Assembly: GCA_902563505.1 (NCBI GenBank)
Contig: CACEXK010000002.1
Coordinates: forward strand, 70,884 to 134,883
Source of the DNA: an uncultured Alphaproteobacteria bacterium
GTDB lineage: Bacteria; Pseudomonadota; Alphaproteobacteria; Methylaequorales; Methylaequoraceae
Reading direction: 5' to 3'
DNA length: 64,000 bases
The translations under genes and the position numbers were made by a program. Positions 3,707-24,653 of this stretch are shown one piece after another; position 1 is the first letter of the stretch, and each line of letters begins with the position of its first letter. Below the pieces are notes generated by a model. That model searched no databases. It was not told the origin of the DNA and was given only the letters and a program-made list of their open reading frames with translations.

Positions 3707-4663
3707 ATGAATTCTAGCTTAAGTGGTAAGAAAATCGTCATTTTTGGTGGAAGCGGTTTTATAGGCTCTCATCTTATAGCAAGGCTATGTGAAGAGGCTT
3801 GTCAAATCCACATTGTAACTAGAGGCTTTAAAAAATCAAAAAACTTTTTTTTTGCAAACGATCCTGGTCAGGTCAACTTTGAAACAGTTGATTCATATAA
3901 TCAAGAAAATATAAATAGTCTTATAAAAGGCTGTGATATAGTTTTTAACTTGGTAGGTATATTAGCTGAGAGTAAGAATTCAAAATTTCATTTTGTACAT
4001 ACCCAAATACCCCAAATGATCGCCAAAGGAGTGAAAGAGAATAAAGTCAGAAATTTCATTCATGTGTCTGCATTAAATGTAAATAAAATAAAAGATTCCG
4101 ATTATGCTAAATCTAAGTATGCTGGCGAATTGAAGGTTAGAGAAATTTTTCCAAACACGGTTATAGTAAGACCTGGTGTTGTTTTTGGTAGAGGGGATAA
4201 TTTTACTAATTTTTTTTCTAAAATGTCTAAATTTAGCCCTGTGTTACCTTTAATAGGTACACCAAAAATCACTTTATCAAAAACGAATATACCAAATATT
4301 GATTTCAAAAAAAAAGTAATGTTTCAACCAATTTATGTGGGTGATTTAATTCATTTTTTGATTTGTATATCAACCAAAAAAAATAAGACATATGATCTTA
4401 CTGGTCCTTTCATAAAGTCATTTGATCAAATTTTTGATATTATTTTGAGTCATAAAAAAAGAAAAAGAATTTATTTTCCAATACCTTTTTTCTTTGCAAA
4501 AATATTAGCCTTTTTTCTTGAATTTTTGCCAAATAAACCCTTAACTCAAGACCAAGTAAGATTGCTGATGTTTGACAGTGTTTCTAATAAAGGACTGAGG
4601 AATTTAACTGATTTTGTTAAAACCCCCTCATCTTTAGAGACAATAGTTAAGAATTACCTTTAG
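3707..4663 (+). CDS. NAD(P)-binding epimerase/dehydratase family protein, NDUFA9 (complex I 39 kDa)-like
   Basis: N-terminal Rossmann motif VIFGGSGFIGSHL. YAKSKYAGE matches the YxxxK catalytic motif. About 318 aa, as in alphaproteobacterial NDUFA9-like proteins. Confidence 0.7.
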   Translation: MNSSLSGKKIVIFGGSGFIGSHLIARLCEEACQIHIVTRGFKKSKNFFFANDPGQVNFETVDSYNQENINSLIKGCDIVFNLVGILAESKNSKFHFVHTQIPQMIAKGVKENKVRNFIHVSALNVNKIKDSDYAKSKYAGELKVREIFPNTVIVRPGVVFGRGDNFTNFFSKMSKFSPVLPLIGTPKITLSKTNIPNIDFKKKVMFQPIYVGDLIHFLICISTKKNKTYDLTGPFIKSFDQIFDIILSHKKRKRIYFPIPFFFAKILAFFLEFLPNKPLTQDQVRLLMFDSVSNKGLRNLTDFVKTPSSLETIVKNYL

Positions 4664-5475
4664 CCCAAATAAAACATGATTATTAAAGAAGTTCCAAAAA
4701 TTAACCTGTAAAGCATGAAAATAAATAACGAAGATTTTCTAACCCAATAAACTAAAAAATGAATAAAAATTATTGAAAAAATAAAACTAAGCAAGAAAAT
4801 CATTATCGCTCCAAAGTTTAGTAAATTATCAATATAAAATGGCTTGGCATCATCTAAAAGCAGGAAGGTAATTGCACCTATAAGCACAGGAATACTCAAC
4901 AAATTAGAGTAAAGAATACAAAAATCCCTATTATAACCATTTAGCCTCATGGCAGTTAGAACTGAACCAGACCTACTTACGCCAGGAATTAATGCTAGGC
5001 ATTGAATTGATCCGATAAATAAAGATGATTTGATATTCATAGCGTCAAAACTTTTGACTAATAGACAATATTTATCCAAGATCAAAAGTATAAAACCGAA
5101 TACGACGCTTGTGACACCTATAATTAAAAGTATTCTTTCATTATCGTAATCAAAATATTTACCAAAAAAATAACCAACAATAATAACTGGAATTGATGAT
5201 ACAAATAAAAAAATTAGCAGGCTTGCATGTCTTTCAATGTCTGGTCTTAGAATATTTTTAACTGATAATAATAAATTTTTTATAATTTGATAGTAATAAA
5301 TTAATATAGCTAAAAGTGAGCCAGAGTGTGCGATTATATTTGCTTCTAAAATAGTTAAGCTCGACAAATAACTTATATCGAAAAACTGGTTGAAAAGTAT
5401 CAAGTGACCTTGAGAACTAACTGGGAGGAATTCAGTAAAACCCTGAATTAAAGCGAATAGAAAAATTAAAAACAC
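4660..5475 (-). CDS. uppP: undecaprenyl-diphosphatase
   Basis: GFTEFLPVSSQGH and PGVSRSGSVLTAM signature motifs, polytopic membrane protein, GTG start. Confidence 0.9.
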   Translation of the reverse strand: MFLIFLFALIQGFTEFLPVSSQGHLILFNQFFDISYLSSLTILEANIIAHSGSLLAILIYYYQIIKNLLLSVKNILRPDIERHASLLIFLFVSSIPVIIVGYFFGKYFDYDNERILLIIGVTSVVFGFILLILDKYCLLVKSFDAMNIKSSLFIGSIQCLALIPGVSRSGSVLTAMRLNGYNRDFCILYSNLLSIPVLIGAITFLLLDDAKPFYIDNLLNFGAIMIFLLSFIFSIIFIHFLVYWVRKSSLFIFMLYRLIFGTSLIIMFYLG

Positions 5476-18535: not shown

Positions 18536-20782
<2,247 letters not shown>

Positions 20783-20847
20783 TTAATGTTATCTATCTCC
20801 CCAAAATATTTAATATTGGTGCAAAAGATTTAAAAGTCAAGATCAAG

Positions 20848-20862
20848 TTAGAATAATTCTAA
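20848..20862. promoter_or_regulatory. candidate Irr box / iron control element (perfect 6-3-6 dyad TTAGAA-TAA-TTCTAA)
   Basis: Read directly. It lies 6 nt beyond the irr-like stop and about 180 nt upstream of the katG ATG. It matches the ICE core as I recall it (about TTTAGAA-N3-TTCTAAA). Confidence 0.55.
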
Positions 20863-20868
20863 TTAGCA

Positions 20869-21279
20869 CTATTTGTTGTCAAGATTAACAACAACATTTA
20901 CTGATGATATTTTTTTTCCTTTAGGAAGGCTTGGCAATTTAGTAATTACAATTTTGGACGAATTAATATCAATTAATTCTTCAGTATCCTTGCAGTAAAA
21001 GTGATGATGATGATTGGTATTCGTGTCAAAAAAAATTTTGTCTGAAGAAGTTTTTATTGCTCTCAGCAAACCATAGTCTTTGAATGAATTTAGTGTATTA
21101 TAAATGGTTGCCAAGGAGATATTTAGAGAATTTTCCTGAACTTTCTTGAGTATATCTTCCGCGGTGTAGTGCGCATCTCCATCCTTGAATATAACTTTTA
21201 ACAAAGCAATCCTTTGATTAGTTGCTTTAAGTGGAGTTTTGTATAGCATCTCCATAGCTTTGTTAATTGATTCACTCAT
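20869..21279 (-). CDS. irr: Fur-family transcriptional regulator, Irr-like
   Basis: wHTH (ISLATIYNTLNSFKDYGLL) and FFDTNTNHHHHFYCKDTEELIDI. It has no CxxC pairs and only a single Cys. The C-terminal layout resembles rhizobial Irr (FDTN..HHH.Y....EL.DI) from memory. Confidence 0.8.
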   Translation of the reverse strand: MSESINKAMEMLYKTPLKATNQRIALLKVIFKDGDAHYTAEDILKKVQENSLNISLATIYNTLNSFKDYGLLRAIKTSSDKIFFDTNTNHHHHFYCKDTEELIDINSSKIVITKLPSLPKGKKISSVNVVVNLDNK

Positions 21280-21377
21280 ACTTTTATAATATTAAAACCA
21301 TAGCACTATTACAATAATTAAACTTAGTAAACAACAAAATAATTTTATTAATAAATTTAATTAATACAATTCCTAAA

Positions 21378-21596
21378 TCCCATGATTTAAATCCCTACCT
21401 AGAGCTCTTAAAGGTAGATGGAATAATGGTTATATTTAATGCAATTGAGGCGTTTGATGAAAAACTCAATATGAGAAATCTTATTTTTGGAAGAAAATCT
21501 TTAGCAGGATCTTTGCTTGGCGGAACAAAAAAAAACACAAGCAATATTAAATTTTTGGAATTTTCTTGTATCGGTTGGATAAATATACAAAAATAA
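21378..21596 (+). pseudogene. remnant of a Zn-dependent alcohol dehydrogenase (YahK/CAD family), C-terminal third only
   Basis: The plus-frame translation is SHDLNPYLELLKVDGIMVIFNAIEAFDEKLNMRNLIFGRKSLAGSLLGGTKKNTSNIKFLEFSCIGWINIQK*. It aligns by eye with YahK ..HNLDDFTTLLKRDGTMTLVG....[33 protein letters not shown]. There is no N-terminal two-thirds and no proper start, and the frame is closed by TAA at 21315. Confidence 0.6.
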
Positions 21597-21635
21597 TAAA
21601 GGATTAAAATAGAATGAAAAGTTTCGAGGCATTTC

Positions 21636-22673
21636 ATGCCTAAAAAAATAAAACTTACTGCTGTAATCGAGGCTGACGACAATGCAGTACTTGATGAATC
21701 AGCAATTAACAATTCTGTTGGAAAGCTCGGAAAAGTTGAATCCTATAATATAGGCATTGATACGGGAGAGAGTGATAATGCTGTTGGCGGTGCTGCCTCT
21801 TCGCAAGAAGGAAGCTCAGCGGGTGTATCAGAAATTTCTAGTTTCATAAAAGACTCCAATAAAATTTATTATGGATCTTTAGATGTTGAAAAAAGAAAAG
21901 CAGTAGTAATTTCAATGTTACATTCAGCTAATCTAGAAAAGGCTAAAAATGACAGTGGATTTAAAAATAAATTATCATCAATGTTTGCCAATAAACTAGA
22001 GGAAGAGAACTCTTATGTTGATAAACTTTTGAATGATACAAATGACGAATCATTATTTGAGGTGGTTAAAAGTAAATTCTTAGATGGGGATCTAAGTCAA
22101 ATGTTTATTTATATTTGGGAAAAAATACTATCAAAAGGTGAGGAAGATGATTTTGAAGTTGAATTAATTGAAACTACTGCAGAAAAGTTTTCAATGGAAA
22201 AGCCTGACATTGCTGAAACAAAGAAACTAGGAAATGAAAGAGCAAAGATAAGCAGAGCAATTGATGTAATTAATTCTGGGAAAACAGCATACAATAAACT
22301 CAAAGCTTTTGAAAAAACTGTAGTTATTGCTTTAATGTTGACAGAATGTTCAACTATTGATGGCAAAATATCTTCTGAAGATTTAAGTCAATTAAGAAGT
22401 TTACTTAATGATCAATTTAATGTTTCAAGTAATAGTCTTACGGTAGTTTTAGAGAGAGAAATTGGTTATTCTCTCACAAAAAAGGTTGAACAAGTTGAAG
22501 TTTATAGAGAGAAATATGAACTAGTTGAATTTCTGTGGGAACGAATTCTTTCAACTGAAACTGATATAAAAGACGGTGAGATGGAATTGATCAGAAAAAT
22601 GGTAAGAAGACTTGATATTTCTGATGTAGAATCTGAAGGTGCTAGAAAAGAGGTGGAAGCCAATTTGGGTTAA
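21636..22673 (+). CDS. hypothetical protein with two TerB-like repeats
   Basis: Two internally similar units: ..RKAVVISMLHSAN...FIYIWEKILSKGEEDDFEVELIETTAEKF and ..KTVVIALMLTECSTIDGKISSEDL...VEFLWERILSTETDIKDGEMELIRKMVRRLDIS. They resemble the TerB fold pattern seen in 26936-27364. Confidence 0.5.
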   Translation: MPKKIKLTAVIEADDNAVLDESAINNSVGKLGKVESYNIGIDTGESDNAVGGAASSQEGSSAGVSEISSFIKDSNKIYYGSLDVEKRKAVVISMLHSANLEKAKNDSGFKNKLSSMFANKLEEENSYVDKLLNDTNDESLFEVVKSKFLDGDLSQMFIYIWEKILSKGEEDDFEVELIETTAEKFSMEKPDIAETKKLGNERAKISRAIDVINSGKTAYNKLKAFEKTVVIALMLTECSTIDGKISSEDLSQLRSLLNDQFNVSSNSLTVVLEREIGYSLTKKVEQVEVYREKYELVEFLWERILSTETDIKDGEMELIRKMVRRLDISDVESEGARKEVEANLG

Positions 22674-22758: not shown

Positions 22759-23172
22759 ATGCAAAGTACAAGAGAAAATTCATTTAAATACAGGCTTCTA
22801 CAAAGCTGTAAATGCTTTAAAATGAGAAAAGCTTCAAGAGTTGTCACACAGTATTATGATAAAAAGCTAAAACCTTGTAAAATTAAGATAACACAATTTT
22901 CAATTTTATCTCTTCTTGCTACTGGAGAATCGAAAACATTAAACAGCTTATCAGAGGATCTGCTGATGGATAGAACTACTCTAACCAGAAGTCTGGATAT
23001 ACTTTTTAAGGATAAGTTGATTGAAAATGTTAAAGATGATGATGCAAGAAAAAGAGTGGTTAAACTTACTGAAAAAGGATACAAAATTCTTGATCAGGCT
23101 ATCCCATTGTGGAGAGAGGCAGAAGAAGAGATTCTGGATGAATGTAAAAAATATGATTTTTCTGTTATTTAA
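22759..23172 (+). CDS. MarR-family regulator, OhrR-like (candidate 2-Cys peroxide sensor)
   Basis: There is a gapless by-eye alignment to B. subtilis OhrR around the sensing Cys. CFKMRKASRVVTQYYDKKLKPCKIKITQF aligns with CFLLYASSREMTKQYKPLLDKLNITYPQY. A second Cys (C129) sits near the C-terminus, as in 2-Cys OhrR. Confidence 0.75.
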   Translation: MQSTRENSFKYRLLQSCKCFKMRKASRVVTQYYDKKLKPCKIKITQFSILSLLATGESKTLNSLSEDLLMDRTTLTRSLDILFKDKLIENVKDDDARKRVVKLTEKGYKILDQAIPLWREAEEEILDECKKYDFSVI

Positions 23173-23174
23173 TC

Positions 23175-24653
23175 TTATGTTCCACAAAATGTATTCCTTA
23201 CAATCTCATTAGAACTAGGAGGTAATGAGAAATATTTCTTGTTCTTTTTTTCAATAAATGGATTTTTGATTATATCAAGTAGATCATTCATTAGAGAAAA
23301 TTTTTCATTTTCAACAGCTTCCTTGATGATTTTTTCTAAAATATGATTCCGTGGAACATATACAGGGTTTACTTTTTTCATATCTTTTTTAATATTCTCA
23401 ATACTCCTTATTTCTTTACTAATTCTTTTTTTCCAGGCACCGAGCCAATTAACGATTGATGTTTTATTCTTCGATAATGAGATAATATAGTCACCTTCTT
23501 TGAAAGAATCTTTTGTATTACTTAGGTTTCTAAATGCTGATGTAAAATCAATATTTTGCTTCAGCAATATTTCAAGGAAAGATTGAATTAATTTTTTGTC
23601 TTCAGGAAAACTTTTTTTCATACCCAACTTCATTCTAAAATTTGACATCCAATATTCTTCAAAAAATTCTGCAAATAAATTGAGTGAATCAATAATAATA
23701 GTTTGAGACTTTTTTTCATTATTCGATATTAATGGTGAAAGGCATTGTGCGAATATTGAGAGATTCCATAGCATTATTTGTCCTTGATTTGAGTAGGAAT
23801 ATCTTCCTCTAGTATCAATGTAACTAAAAACTTTTTGAGGATGGAAATGGTCCATAAATGCGCATGGACCATAATCAATTGTCTCCCCAGATATAGCTGT
23901 ATTATCTGTATTCATTACGCCGTGAATAAAACCAACACTCATCCATGATGCTACCAGAGATGCTTGAGATTTTATTGTTTTTGCCAGTATTGATTTATAA
24001 ATATTTTCATCATTGTTAAATGAATCCGGATAATGTCTCTTAATAGCGTAATCTGCTAGATTTTTAAGAGAGGTTATATCATTCTTTGCAAAAAAATATT
24101 CAAATGTCCCAATTCTGATGTGACTAGATGCTATTCGTGTAAGAATTCCACCAGGTAAAAAACTCTCTCTTTCAACATTCTCTCCTGAGCTAACAATTGC
24201 TAAGGACCTAGTTGTTGGGATACCCAAGTGGTACATTGCTTCACTAACAATATATTCTCTAATTACTGGACCCAGGGGAGCTCTTCCATCTCCCTGCCTC
24301 GAAAAGGAAGTTTTTCCTGAACCTTTAAGTTGTATATCATACCTTTTACCATCTATAGCAATTATTTCCCCCAAAAGCACAGCTCTACCATCTCCTAATT
24401 GTGGAACAAAATTTCCGAACTGGTGTCCTGCATATGCTAACGCAATTGGTTTAGACCCTCTAAGAACTTTATTTCCAGCTAGAGCTAATAACCCATCTTT
24501 ACTTTTTAAAAAATTATCATCAAGGTCTAGGTATTCCGAAAGCTTTTTATTTAACTTTATCAACTTTGGTTTTTTTACTGGTTGAGGTTTTATTTCCTCA
24601 TAAAATTGATTAGAAAGTTTAGAATAGGTATTGTCAAATTTGATATTTACCAT
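23175..24653 (-). CDS. selO: protein adenylyltransferase SelO (YdiU/UPF0061)
   Basis: AGHQFGNFVPQLGDGRAVLLGE, GDGRAPLGPVIREY, HGVMNTDN and C-terminal ..TFCGT, 492 aa. Confidence 0.92.
   Translation of the reverse strand: MVNIKFDNTYSKLSNQFYEEIKPQPVKKPKLIKLNKKLSEYLDLDDNFLKSKDGLLALAGNKVLRGSKPIALAYAGHQFGNFVPQLGDGRAVLLGEIIAIDGKRYDIQLKGSGKTSFSRQGDGRAPLGPVIREYIVSEAMYHLGIPTTRSLAIVSSGENVERESFLPGGILTRIASSHIRIGTFEYFFAKNDITSLKNLADYAIKRHYPDSFNNDENIYKSILAKTIKSQASLVASWMSVGFIHGVMNTDNTAISGETIDYGPCAFMDHFHPQKVFSYIDTRGRYSYSNQGQIMLWNLSIFAQCLSPLISNNEKKSQTIIIDSLNLFAEFFEEYWMSNFRMKLGMKKSFPEDKKLIQSFLEILLKQNIDFTSAFRNLSNTKDSFKEGDYIISLSKNKTSIVNWLGAWKKRISKEIRSIENIKKDMKKVNPVYVPRNHILEKIIKEAVENEKFSLMNDLLDIIKNPFIEKKNKKYFSLPPSSNEIVRNTFCGT

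Follow-up and report, generated by a model that had tools for sequence, protein, structure and literature searches.

A predicted Irr operator between irr and katG in a SAR11-type genome

A palindrome located between irr and katG in a 64-kb stretch of DNA (hereafter the window) is very probably the operator by which the adjoining Irr regulator controls the katG promoter. The predicted unit that it belongs to, consisting of irr, the iron control element (ICE, or Irr-box) and a promoter, is a conserved SAR11-type cassette, and its cargo is either a rubrerythrin (rbr) operon, katG or nothing. What appears to be new is the irr-ICE-katG arrangement in a SAR11-type genome, along with an operator-promoter slot behind irr that carries an exchangeable peroxide-scavenger cargo. 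No new kind of regulator or element is revealed. The original prediction had considered the module undescribed in SAR11. This is apparently so for the irr-ICE-katG combination, and a full-text literature search detected no paper linking Irr to katG in SAR11. It is not so for Irr and the ICE themselves, which were predicted in P. ubique in 2006 (PMC1698941).

The dyad (TTAGAATAATTCTAA) occupied positions 20848-20862 of the window. On the katG strand it reads TTAGAATTATTCTAA and forms a perfect 7-1-7 palindrome, TTAGAAT-T-ATTCTAA, which is a Fur-family operator layout. It was separated by 6 nt (20863-20868) from the irr stop codon and by 179 nt from the katG ATG (20668). These positions agree with those originally given, a perfect TTAGAA-TAA-TTCTAA dyad 6 nt past the stop codon of a Fur-family gene and about 180 nt upstream of the katG ATG. 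The dyad had also been equated with the core of the ICE that Irr binds in Bradyrhizobium, and the comparison with the published consensus, the 17-mer TTTRGAAYNRTTCYAAA, confirmed this. The window sequence aTTAGAATTATTCTAAc agrees with the consensus at 14 of its 16 specified positions, including the Y-N-R centre, and the mismatches are the two outermost bases only.

The exact motif TTAGAA-N3-TTCTAA was found once in the window, where 0.11 matches were expected, so the dyad is indeed the sole full copy, as had been judged by eye. One match was also present in 11 out of 100 shuffled sequences. When up to two mismatches were permitted, the motif was not enriched across the window (15 matches, 18.8 expected). 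We then scored the window with a weight matrix, the training sites of which came solely from lineages other than that of the window. The dyad scored 23.8 bits and the runner-up position 5.6, and the maxima of simulated 64-kb sequences were 8.1 at the median and 14.7 at the 95th percentile. By exact count and by matrix score, the dyad thus stands above background. Perfect dyads are nevertheless common in this window (30.5% G+C), where 54 have 6-3-6 spacing and 12 have 7-1-7 spacing. What gives the site weight is therefore its agreement with the ICE sequence, where it lies and how well it is conserved, and not its symmetry. A lone TTCTAAA half-site at the TBDR start, to which the original prediction had drawn attention, carries no information since the window contains 59 copies of this 7-mer when both orientations are counted. 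A second site with one mismatch, at 5247, was inside a coding ORF (4660-5475) and was not counted.

The irr gene (20869-21279, minus strand) encodes a 136-aa protein which, judging by its sequence, is an Irr-type regulator and not PerR or Fur. Among the NCBIfam models it scored 143.4 bits with IrrA and 137.7 with Irr, while the best PerR and Fur models reached 65.8 and 58.5 bits. Irr models thus outscored every other family by about 77 bits. The two scores fall short of the NCBIfam cut-offs, by 6.6 bits for NF045678 (cut-off 150) and by 32 bits for NF045677 (cut-off 170). An ordinary SAR11 Irr (P0020), a protein accepted in the literature as orthologous to Irr, is also under these cut-offs, with 147.5 and 136.4 bits on the same two models, and rhizobial references score above 200. 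The SAR11-type Irr clade is therefore divergent as a whole, as was remarked already by Rodionov et al. 2006 (PMC1698941). The window protein matched the Pfam FUR family (PF01475) with 90.6 bits, and the named relatives recovered by a homologue search of 5.8 billion proteins were all IrrA or "iron response regulator". PerR membership is contradicted by the missing Zn(Cys)4 site (the protein has one Cys) and by PerR model scores of 62-66 bits, far under the cut-offs of 180-250. No second Fur-family gene was found within the 64-kb window.

Residues shared invariantly by the window Irr and rhizobial IrrA included the recognition-helix motif SLATIYNxL, DTN, H91-H92-H93 and D104. The three histidines (residues 91-93) were unchanged across 59 aligned Irr sequences and contain HxH, a putative haem-binding motif in the dimerisation domain. 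One katG-linked Irr relative had HFH, by which HxH is kept. The motif FDTNTNHHHHFY...ELIDI, proposed earlier as the layout of rhizobial Irr, was present, and the reported lack of CxxC zinc pairs was correct. The only cysteine is C96, a Thr aligns with C99 of PerR, and the C-terminal CxxC is absent. The N-terminal Cys-Pro haem regulatory motif is also absent from the window Irr sequence; it is a feature of Bradyrhizobiaceae only and not of the Irr family at large.

A search of PDB by sequence found no Irr structure, and the top match was PerR of Bacillus subtilis. The two proteins align with identical numbering, and H37, D85, H91, H93 and D104, which in PerR are the five residues that bind the regulatory metal, are retained in the window Irr and invariant in the 59 Irr sequences. 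The AlphaFold model of the window Irr (pLDDT 91.2, pTM 0.80) had the Fur-family fold, with winged-helix DNA-binding and dimerisation domains. In a Foldseek search it matched closed, metal-bound PerR and Fur structures with TM scores of 0.70-0.73 and apo PerR-Zn with 0.55. The structure search yields a generic Fur-family fold, by which Irr, PerR and Fur are not separable.

The cargo gene in the window, katG (18536-20668, minus strand), encodes a 710-aa catalase-peroxidase HPI (NCBIfam PRK15061, 1183 bits; TIGR00198, 1086 bits), and its start, MDDISKCP, was kept in all related loci. A promoter scan placed a predicted -35 hexamer, TTGACT, at 20835-20840 and a predicted -10 hexamer, AATATT, at 20812-20817, both on the minus strand. 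The -35 hexamer was invariant in four lineages and coincided with an information-content peak in the ICE-anchored alignment. It is separated from the ICE by a gap of 7 nt (20841-20847, minus strand), the length of which is fixed in katG and rbr modules. The -10 hexamer is in the same place as the TATATT -10 of rbr modules, and the 17-nt spacer between TTGACT and AATATT was constant in the four lineages. Transcription of katG would accordingly start near 20805, putting the ICE at about -43 to -57. In most SAR11-type loci a -35-like hexamer began 7 nt (sometimes 8) after the ICE. In the katG and rbr modules this hexamer was TTGACT, TTGACA, TTGATA or TTGAAC, and it was followed, after about 17 nt, by a hexamer of the TATATT/AATATT type. 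The rbr modules had a leader of about 30 nt ahead of a GGAGG ribosome-binding site, as would fit a real promoter.

An alternative promoter, TTGACA-18-AATTAT, with its -10 inside the dyad, was rejected, because a 6-nt deletion in the lineage of P0008 cuts its spacer to 12 nt and leaves the dyad intact. A small and weakly supported hairpin (GGGGAGAU...AUUUUUCC; 20775-20802, minus strand) may form close to the 5′ end of the leader predicted for katG. RNAalifold, run on seven leaders, recovered it with 8 pairs, -4.5 kcal/mol and one compensatory pair. The entire katG leader folded with -24.5 kcal/mol (z -2.1), and a search of the irr-katG region against Rfam returned no family at E up to 1.

About 110 related irr loci were collected by a metagenome scan with an Irr alignment, from genome hits and by katG-anchored look-ups. 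An ICE was scored when it had at most one mismatch and lay no more than about 60 nt past the stop codon of irr, and distinct loci were counted. The ICE was present in 31 of the 32 katG-linked loci (26 exact, five with one mismatch), and in the remaining one (L052) it had decayed. It was also found in 22 out of 28 rubrerythrin-linked loci, the other six being from higher-G+C lineages with a diverged ICE. Only one of 23 loci with neither katG nor rubrerythrin downstream had it. The occurrence of the ICE follows that of the cargo gene and not that of irr, and the ICE belongs to the cargo promoter rather than to the 3′ end of irr. The three computational checks set out in the original prediction, on the grouping of the regulator, on the dyad in orthologous irr-katG spacers and on its frequency against background, have thus all turned out in its favour.

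Close relatives from four lineages (76-85% Irr identity) all had katG 175-200 nt past irr. In their irr-katG spacers the dyad, a TTGACTTTT block and a CAATAT block were invariant, and the rest of the spacer drifts. The exact dyad sequence was kept even at 40-60% Irr protein identity, in three genomic neighbourhoods. Among 39 non-redundant ICEs the arms were constant and the centre stayed within Y-N-R (TTA, TAA, CTG, TTG, TAG, CAG, TCA and CAA). This combination of fixed arms and Y-N-R centre fits TTTRGAAYNRTTCYAAA and is the expected look of a protein-binding palindrome.

Loci of the rbr class, distant lineages included, were arranged as pnp-NMO-irr-ICE-rbr...SH3. Their cargo was a three-gene unit, encoding the rubrerythrin (138 aa, Pfam 105 bits), a CCG-type Fe-S protein and a 205-aa protein. 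In other loci (L041, L061, L062, L079, L091 and L110-112) katG occupied the same slot, giving pnp-NMO-irr-ICE-katG-SH3. The slot was empty in loci of the form pnp-NMO-irr-SH3, where operator, promoter and cargo were all missing and irr nearly abuts the convergent SH3 gene. In the lineage of the window, irr-ICE-katG was flanked on one side by SelO-MarR-TerB-like genes and on the other by lepA and a gene for a small secreted protein. In a third lineage its neighbours were an HhH-GPD gene and a gene for a periplasmic binding protein. The ICE-7-TTGAC-17-TAxAxT geometry was identical in the three neighbourhoods, and the presence of the unit in such different surroundings indicates that irr-ICE-katG has moved as a block. 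The link between irr and katG is not universal, since a close katG relative on a 1.54-Mb contig (L113) lacked both irr and an ICE in its upstream region. The closest named katG relatives carried the labels Pelagibacteraceae, Rickettsiales or Alphaproteobacteria, which supports the description of the module as SAR11-type.

In a first NJ tree of Irr, the katG-linked proteins fell into two adjacent groups. Bootstrapping of a thinned set of 77 sequences recovered the cargo-less class in 52 of 60 replicates, the window-type katG group in 7, the rbr class in 5 and monophyly of all katG-linked proteins in none. We dropped a count of cargo swaps from this tree of a 136-aa protein because only the cargo-less class had bootstrap support.

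P. ubique HTCC1062 lacks katG (PMC3315703) and most offshore Pelagibacteraceae genera possess it (PMC12636525). The gene is a textbook "Black Queen" gene, being costly in iron, present in only some marine lineages and of a benefit that leaks to neighbours. Our survey indicates that katG in SAR11-type genomes usually comes pre-wired to a regulator, through a predicted Irr operator, in a slot that rubrerythrin fills elsewhere. This offers a testable model of the way in which a streamlined cell keeps down what a catalase costs it in iron and haem. The string irr-ICE-TTGAC could serve as a sequence marker for the peroxide-defence state of SAR11 in metagenomes. With one regulator, one operator and one target, the module would also be a simple natural system in which to study Irr sensing outside rhizobia. 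Every slot cargo found was a peroxide scavenger, either rbr or katG. We tentatively suggest, with more doubt than confidence, that the SAR11-type Irr is not a global iron regulator but a dedicated, one-promoter sensor of peroxide and/or haem, wired in cis to a plug-in scavenger slot, and that katG is gained and lost by cargo exchange at this single pre-regulated locus. If true, "Black Queen" gain and loss of katG in the most abundant heterotroph of the ocean would proceed by cargo exchange at one locus, with block movement also possible, given the three contexts.

The explanation that we favour overall, and consider probable, is that the ICE is an Irr operator at a sigma-70-type katG promoter, where Irr represses until it is released by haem or peroxide. 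Repression of katG by Irr, lifted by haem and/or peroxide, is the direction and signal that we infer as the most likely. The haem/iron-status control of the original prediction is thus one of the candidate signals, peroxide being the other. If haem or iron runs short, an Irr dimer would bind the ICE, and its footprint, reaching the -35 hexamer and the alpha-CTD contact zone, would hinder RNA polymerase. Bound Irr could also block read-through from irr, since a terminator scan of the irr/katG strand between both genes found no terminator-like site. The haem enzyme KatG would thereby be kept off when haem or iron is low. Haem at the HHH motif and/or oxidation by peroxide at the PerR-like His/Asp site would then release or destroy Irr and turn katG on, and KatG would be produced in the presence of both peroxide and available haem.

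Repression is favoured for several reasons. To our knowledge, Irr is a repressor of iron- and haem-protein genes in every species studied, and the katG hexamers are near consensus. The stretch protected by a Fur-family dimer bound to a core of 15-17 bp is usually about 30 bp long and would here reach the -35 hexamer, 7 bp away from the ICE. The place of the ICE just upstream of the -35 counts against repression, since sites centred at about -50 are characteristic of activators no less than of repressors. In R. sphaeroides Irr binds its target in vitro and the target gene is modestly higher in an irr mutant under iron limitation (PMC3413700), which is one more reason for favouring repression. 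On the other hand, the katE catalase of the same species lacks an Irr-box, is not bound by Irr and is affected by it only indirectly (PMC3413700), and we count this against the Irr-katG explanation.

The position of the ICE raises the alternative, which we think rather unlikely, that Irr is an activator, bound at about -50 and recruiting RNA polymerase in a class I/II-type manner to raise katG or rbr expression when iron or haem is low. The fixed distance of 7 nt from the ICE to the -35 hexamer, in katG and rbr modules alike, is a classical activator position, and Bradyrhizobium Irr reportedly acts positively at some promoters, as Rudolph in 2006 and Small in 2009 are said to have found. The effects of Irr in R. 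sphaeroides were mostly activator-like (Peuser 2012, PMC3413700). In addition, rbr mRNA rose 1.57-fold in P. ubique HTCC1062 under iron limitation (PMC2864753), contrary to what simple Irr repression would bring about at low iron. However, in every SAR11-type rbr module a Fur box close to the canonical form (TGATATTGATTATCATTATC) preceded the ICE, with 5 nt between its end and the ICE, so de-repression by Fur could account for the rise. No katG module carried a Fur box, and katG would thus be left to Irr alone. A near-consensus -35 (TTGACT or TTGACA) with a 17-nt spacer should make an activator unneeded, and it makes little physiological sense to produce more of a haem enzyme while haem is scarce. 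Repression, then, is the direction that we retain, and it is conceivable, albeit doubtful, that its signal is peroxide and not iron. Irr would in that case be a PerR-like one-gene switch, in which H2O2 oxidises the metal- or haem-bound His site and induces the scavenger. The conservation of the five PerR-site residues and the consistent nature of the slot cargo are in line with this. The dyad differs from the PerR box TTATAAT-N-ATTATAA by one base per half-site, and PerR is both the top PDB sequence match and among the closest structural matches. Mutation of irr makes Brucella, Agrobacterium and Rhodobacter more resistant to peroxide, and degradation of Bradyrhizobium Irr is promoted by ROS (PMC3413700). 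The same five residues are nonetheless found in rhizobial Irr proteins that sense haem or iron, so they do not distinguish between the signals, and the lack of the Zn(Cys)4 site and the score of about 66 bits with PerR models, against their cut-offs of 180-250, argue against a PerR-like protein.

It is very improbable that the dyad is bound by another protein, such as Fur or the neighbouring MarR-type regulator, or that it is a chance palindrome, a terminator or a recombination site at the edge of the cargo. A chance origin could be suspected from the abundance of perfect 6-3-6 dyads in this AT-rich window, but not from the persistence of the exact sequence at 40-60% Irr identity. Although a MarR gene is syntenic in the lineage of the window, the dyad is conserved in three neighbourhoods and two of them lack MarR. 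Binding by Fur is at odds with the rbr modules, in which a distinct Fur box stands beside the ICE, so the two motifs are separate in these organisms. As an irr terminator the dyad was rejected, since its hairpin (-2.6 kcal/mol, z -0.14) is no stabler than that of shuffled sequence and has no T-run. The dyad does lie at the left edge of the variable segment, as a recombination site might, but the -35 and -10 hexamers are conserved along with the ICE, which puts the swap boundary beyond the promoter, and no integrase or recombinase genes were seen in the surveyed loci.

The closest known counterpart of the predicted irr-ICE-katG module is the Irr-ICE-rubrerythrin arrangement of P. ubique, where Rodionov et al. 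2006 (PMC1698941) predicted for the Irr orthologue a regulon of one gene, rubrerythrin. The two have in common the regulator clade, the ICE core and its place right after irr. The rbr loci of our survey also share the ICE-7 nt-TTGAC-17 nt-TATAxT promoter and the pnp-NMO-irr...SH3 locus. The window differs in having katG and not the rbr operon as cargo, in the absence of the Fur box and in the location of the unit away from pnp-NMO. The same study predicted ICEs upstream of katG in Rhizobiales, Bradyrhizobium included (PMC1698941). In Bradyrhizobium japonicum the ICEs of blr7895 (rubrerythrin-like) and bfr are experimental and that of katG is predicted (PMC1698941 for katG). The Irr family, a near-identical operator consensus (TTTRGAAYNRTTCYAAA) and iron- or haem-protein targets are common to both systems. 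Unlike the window Irr, the B. japonicum protein has a large regulon with targets away from irr, and it possesses the Cys-Pro haem regulatory motif. At the genes that it represses, ICE and transcription start overlap, whereas the ICE of the window is upstream of the predicted -35. The R. sphaeroides Irr, with ccpA and mbfA (Peuser et al. 2012, PMC3413700), has a minimal regulon of oxidative-stress iron proteins and, like the window Irr, an HxH motif and no HRM. Its targets, unlike katG in the window, are apart from irr, and katE is affected only indirectly.

Outside the Irr family, PerR with katA/ahpC in Bacillus subtilis is similar in its coupling to catalase, in the 7-1-7 AT-rich dyad and in the five regulatory-site residues, and it differs from the window Irr in having Zn(Cys)4. 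The window Irr also scores far under the cut-offs of both the PerR and the Fur profiles. The furA-katG pairs of Mycobacterium and Streptomyces likewise have a regulator gene directly upstream of katG on the same strand. In these pairs, which are transcribed together and regulate themselves, the operator stands ahead of the regulator gene, whereas the ICE of the window is between irr and katG. The region upstream of irr (21280-21635) had no TTAGAA-N3-TTCTAA with up to two mismatches. A PerR-like-katG operon with the furA-type layout was also encountered during the survey, in Acidobacteria.

The rubrerythrin (rbr) operons found downstream of irr differed from katG in their operator region. A near-canonical Fur box, TGATATTGATTATCATTATC, was present in every SAR11-type rbr module, where it overlaps the irr stop codon and stops 5 nt short of the predicted Irr operator, the iron control element (ICE). 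In the related loci L040, L048, L049, L054-L056, L058, L059, L066, L067, L070, L072 and L076, the box occupies the stretch from approximately 25 nt to 5 nt ahead of the ICE. The comparison also took in L085, L087, L089, L094 and L098. The higher-G+C rbr loci possessed a perfect TGATAATCATTATCA together with a diverged ICE. No Fur box was found in any katG module among the loci compared. Since only a single Fur-controlled operon was predicted in P. ubique (Rodionov 2006, PMC1698941), dual control of rbr by Fur and Irr, as predicted here from sequence, may not have been reported previously.

Not every katG locus had an intact ICE. The katG of locus L113 (1.54-Mb contig, 31.7% G+C) was 82% identical to that of the window, and neither a Fur-family gene nor an ICE was detected upstream of it (L113:2780-3003). 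In this lineage katG seems to have been uncoupled from Irr. Several further 712-aa KatG matches were found on contigs of 1.1-1.6 Mb. At the katG-linked locus L052 the ICE was decayed, with three mismatches (ATGGAAATACTCTAA, L052:3041-3055), although its placement relative to TTGACT, at a distance of 7 nt upstream, was the usual one; the predicted operator may have been lost at this locus. In the third katG context, Irr (L107:2476-2889) had HFH in place of HHH (KEHFHFY), and the ICE, TTAGAACACTTCTAA, overlapped the irr stop codon.

Outside Alphaproteobacteria, a layout of the furA-katG type was found in Acidobacteria MAGs (L004-L006), in which katG (L004:4454-6676) is directly preceded by the gene for a 130-aa PerR-like regulator possessing both CxxC pairs (L004:3974-4366). 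The near-ICE box of this operon, ATAGAATTATTCTAA (L004:3935-3949), is almost identical in sequence to the ICE of the irr-katG loci, and overlaps the operon's own promoter, TTGACA-17-TATTCT.

A second inverted repeat, CCAATATT..AATATTTTGG, overlaps the predicted -10 element and transcription start of the window katG (20801-20819, minus strand). It is imperfect in the window, perfect in L010 (CCCAATAT-AATT-AATATTGGGG) and retained in L012, and could be a second operator or belong to the small hairpin predicted near the 5′ end of the katG leader.

Three neighbours of irr-katG were conserved across the window's lineage (L010-L012, L027, L029): a protein of 345 aa that carries a TerB domain at its C terminus (21636-22673, plus strand; Pfam, 25 bits), a MarR/SarA-type (MarR-family) regulator (22759-23172, plus strand) and SelO (23175-24653, minus strand). 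In alignment, the window's interval upstream of irr, between irr and the TerB-like gene (approximately 21340-21560), had some 100-200 bases more than in L010-L017, and these extra bases included an imperfect palindrome, CTACCTAGAGCTCTTAAAGGTAG (21395-21417).
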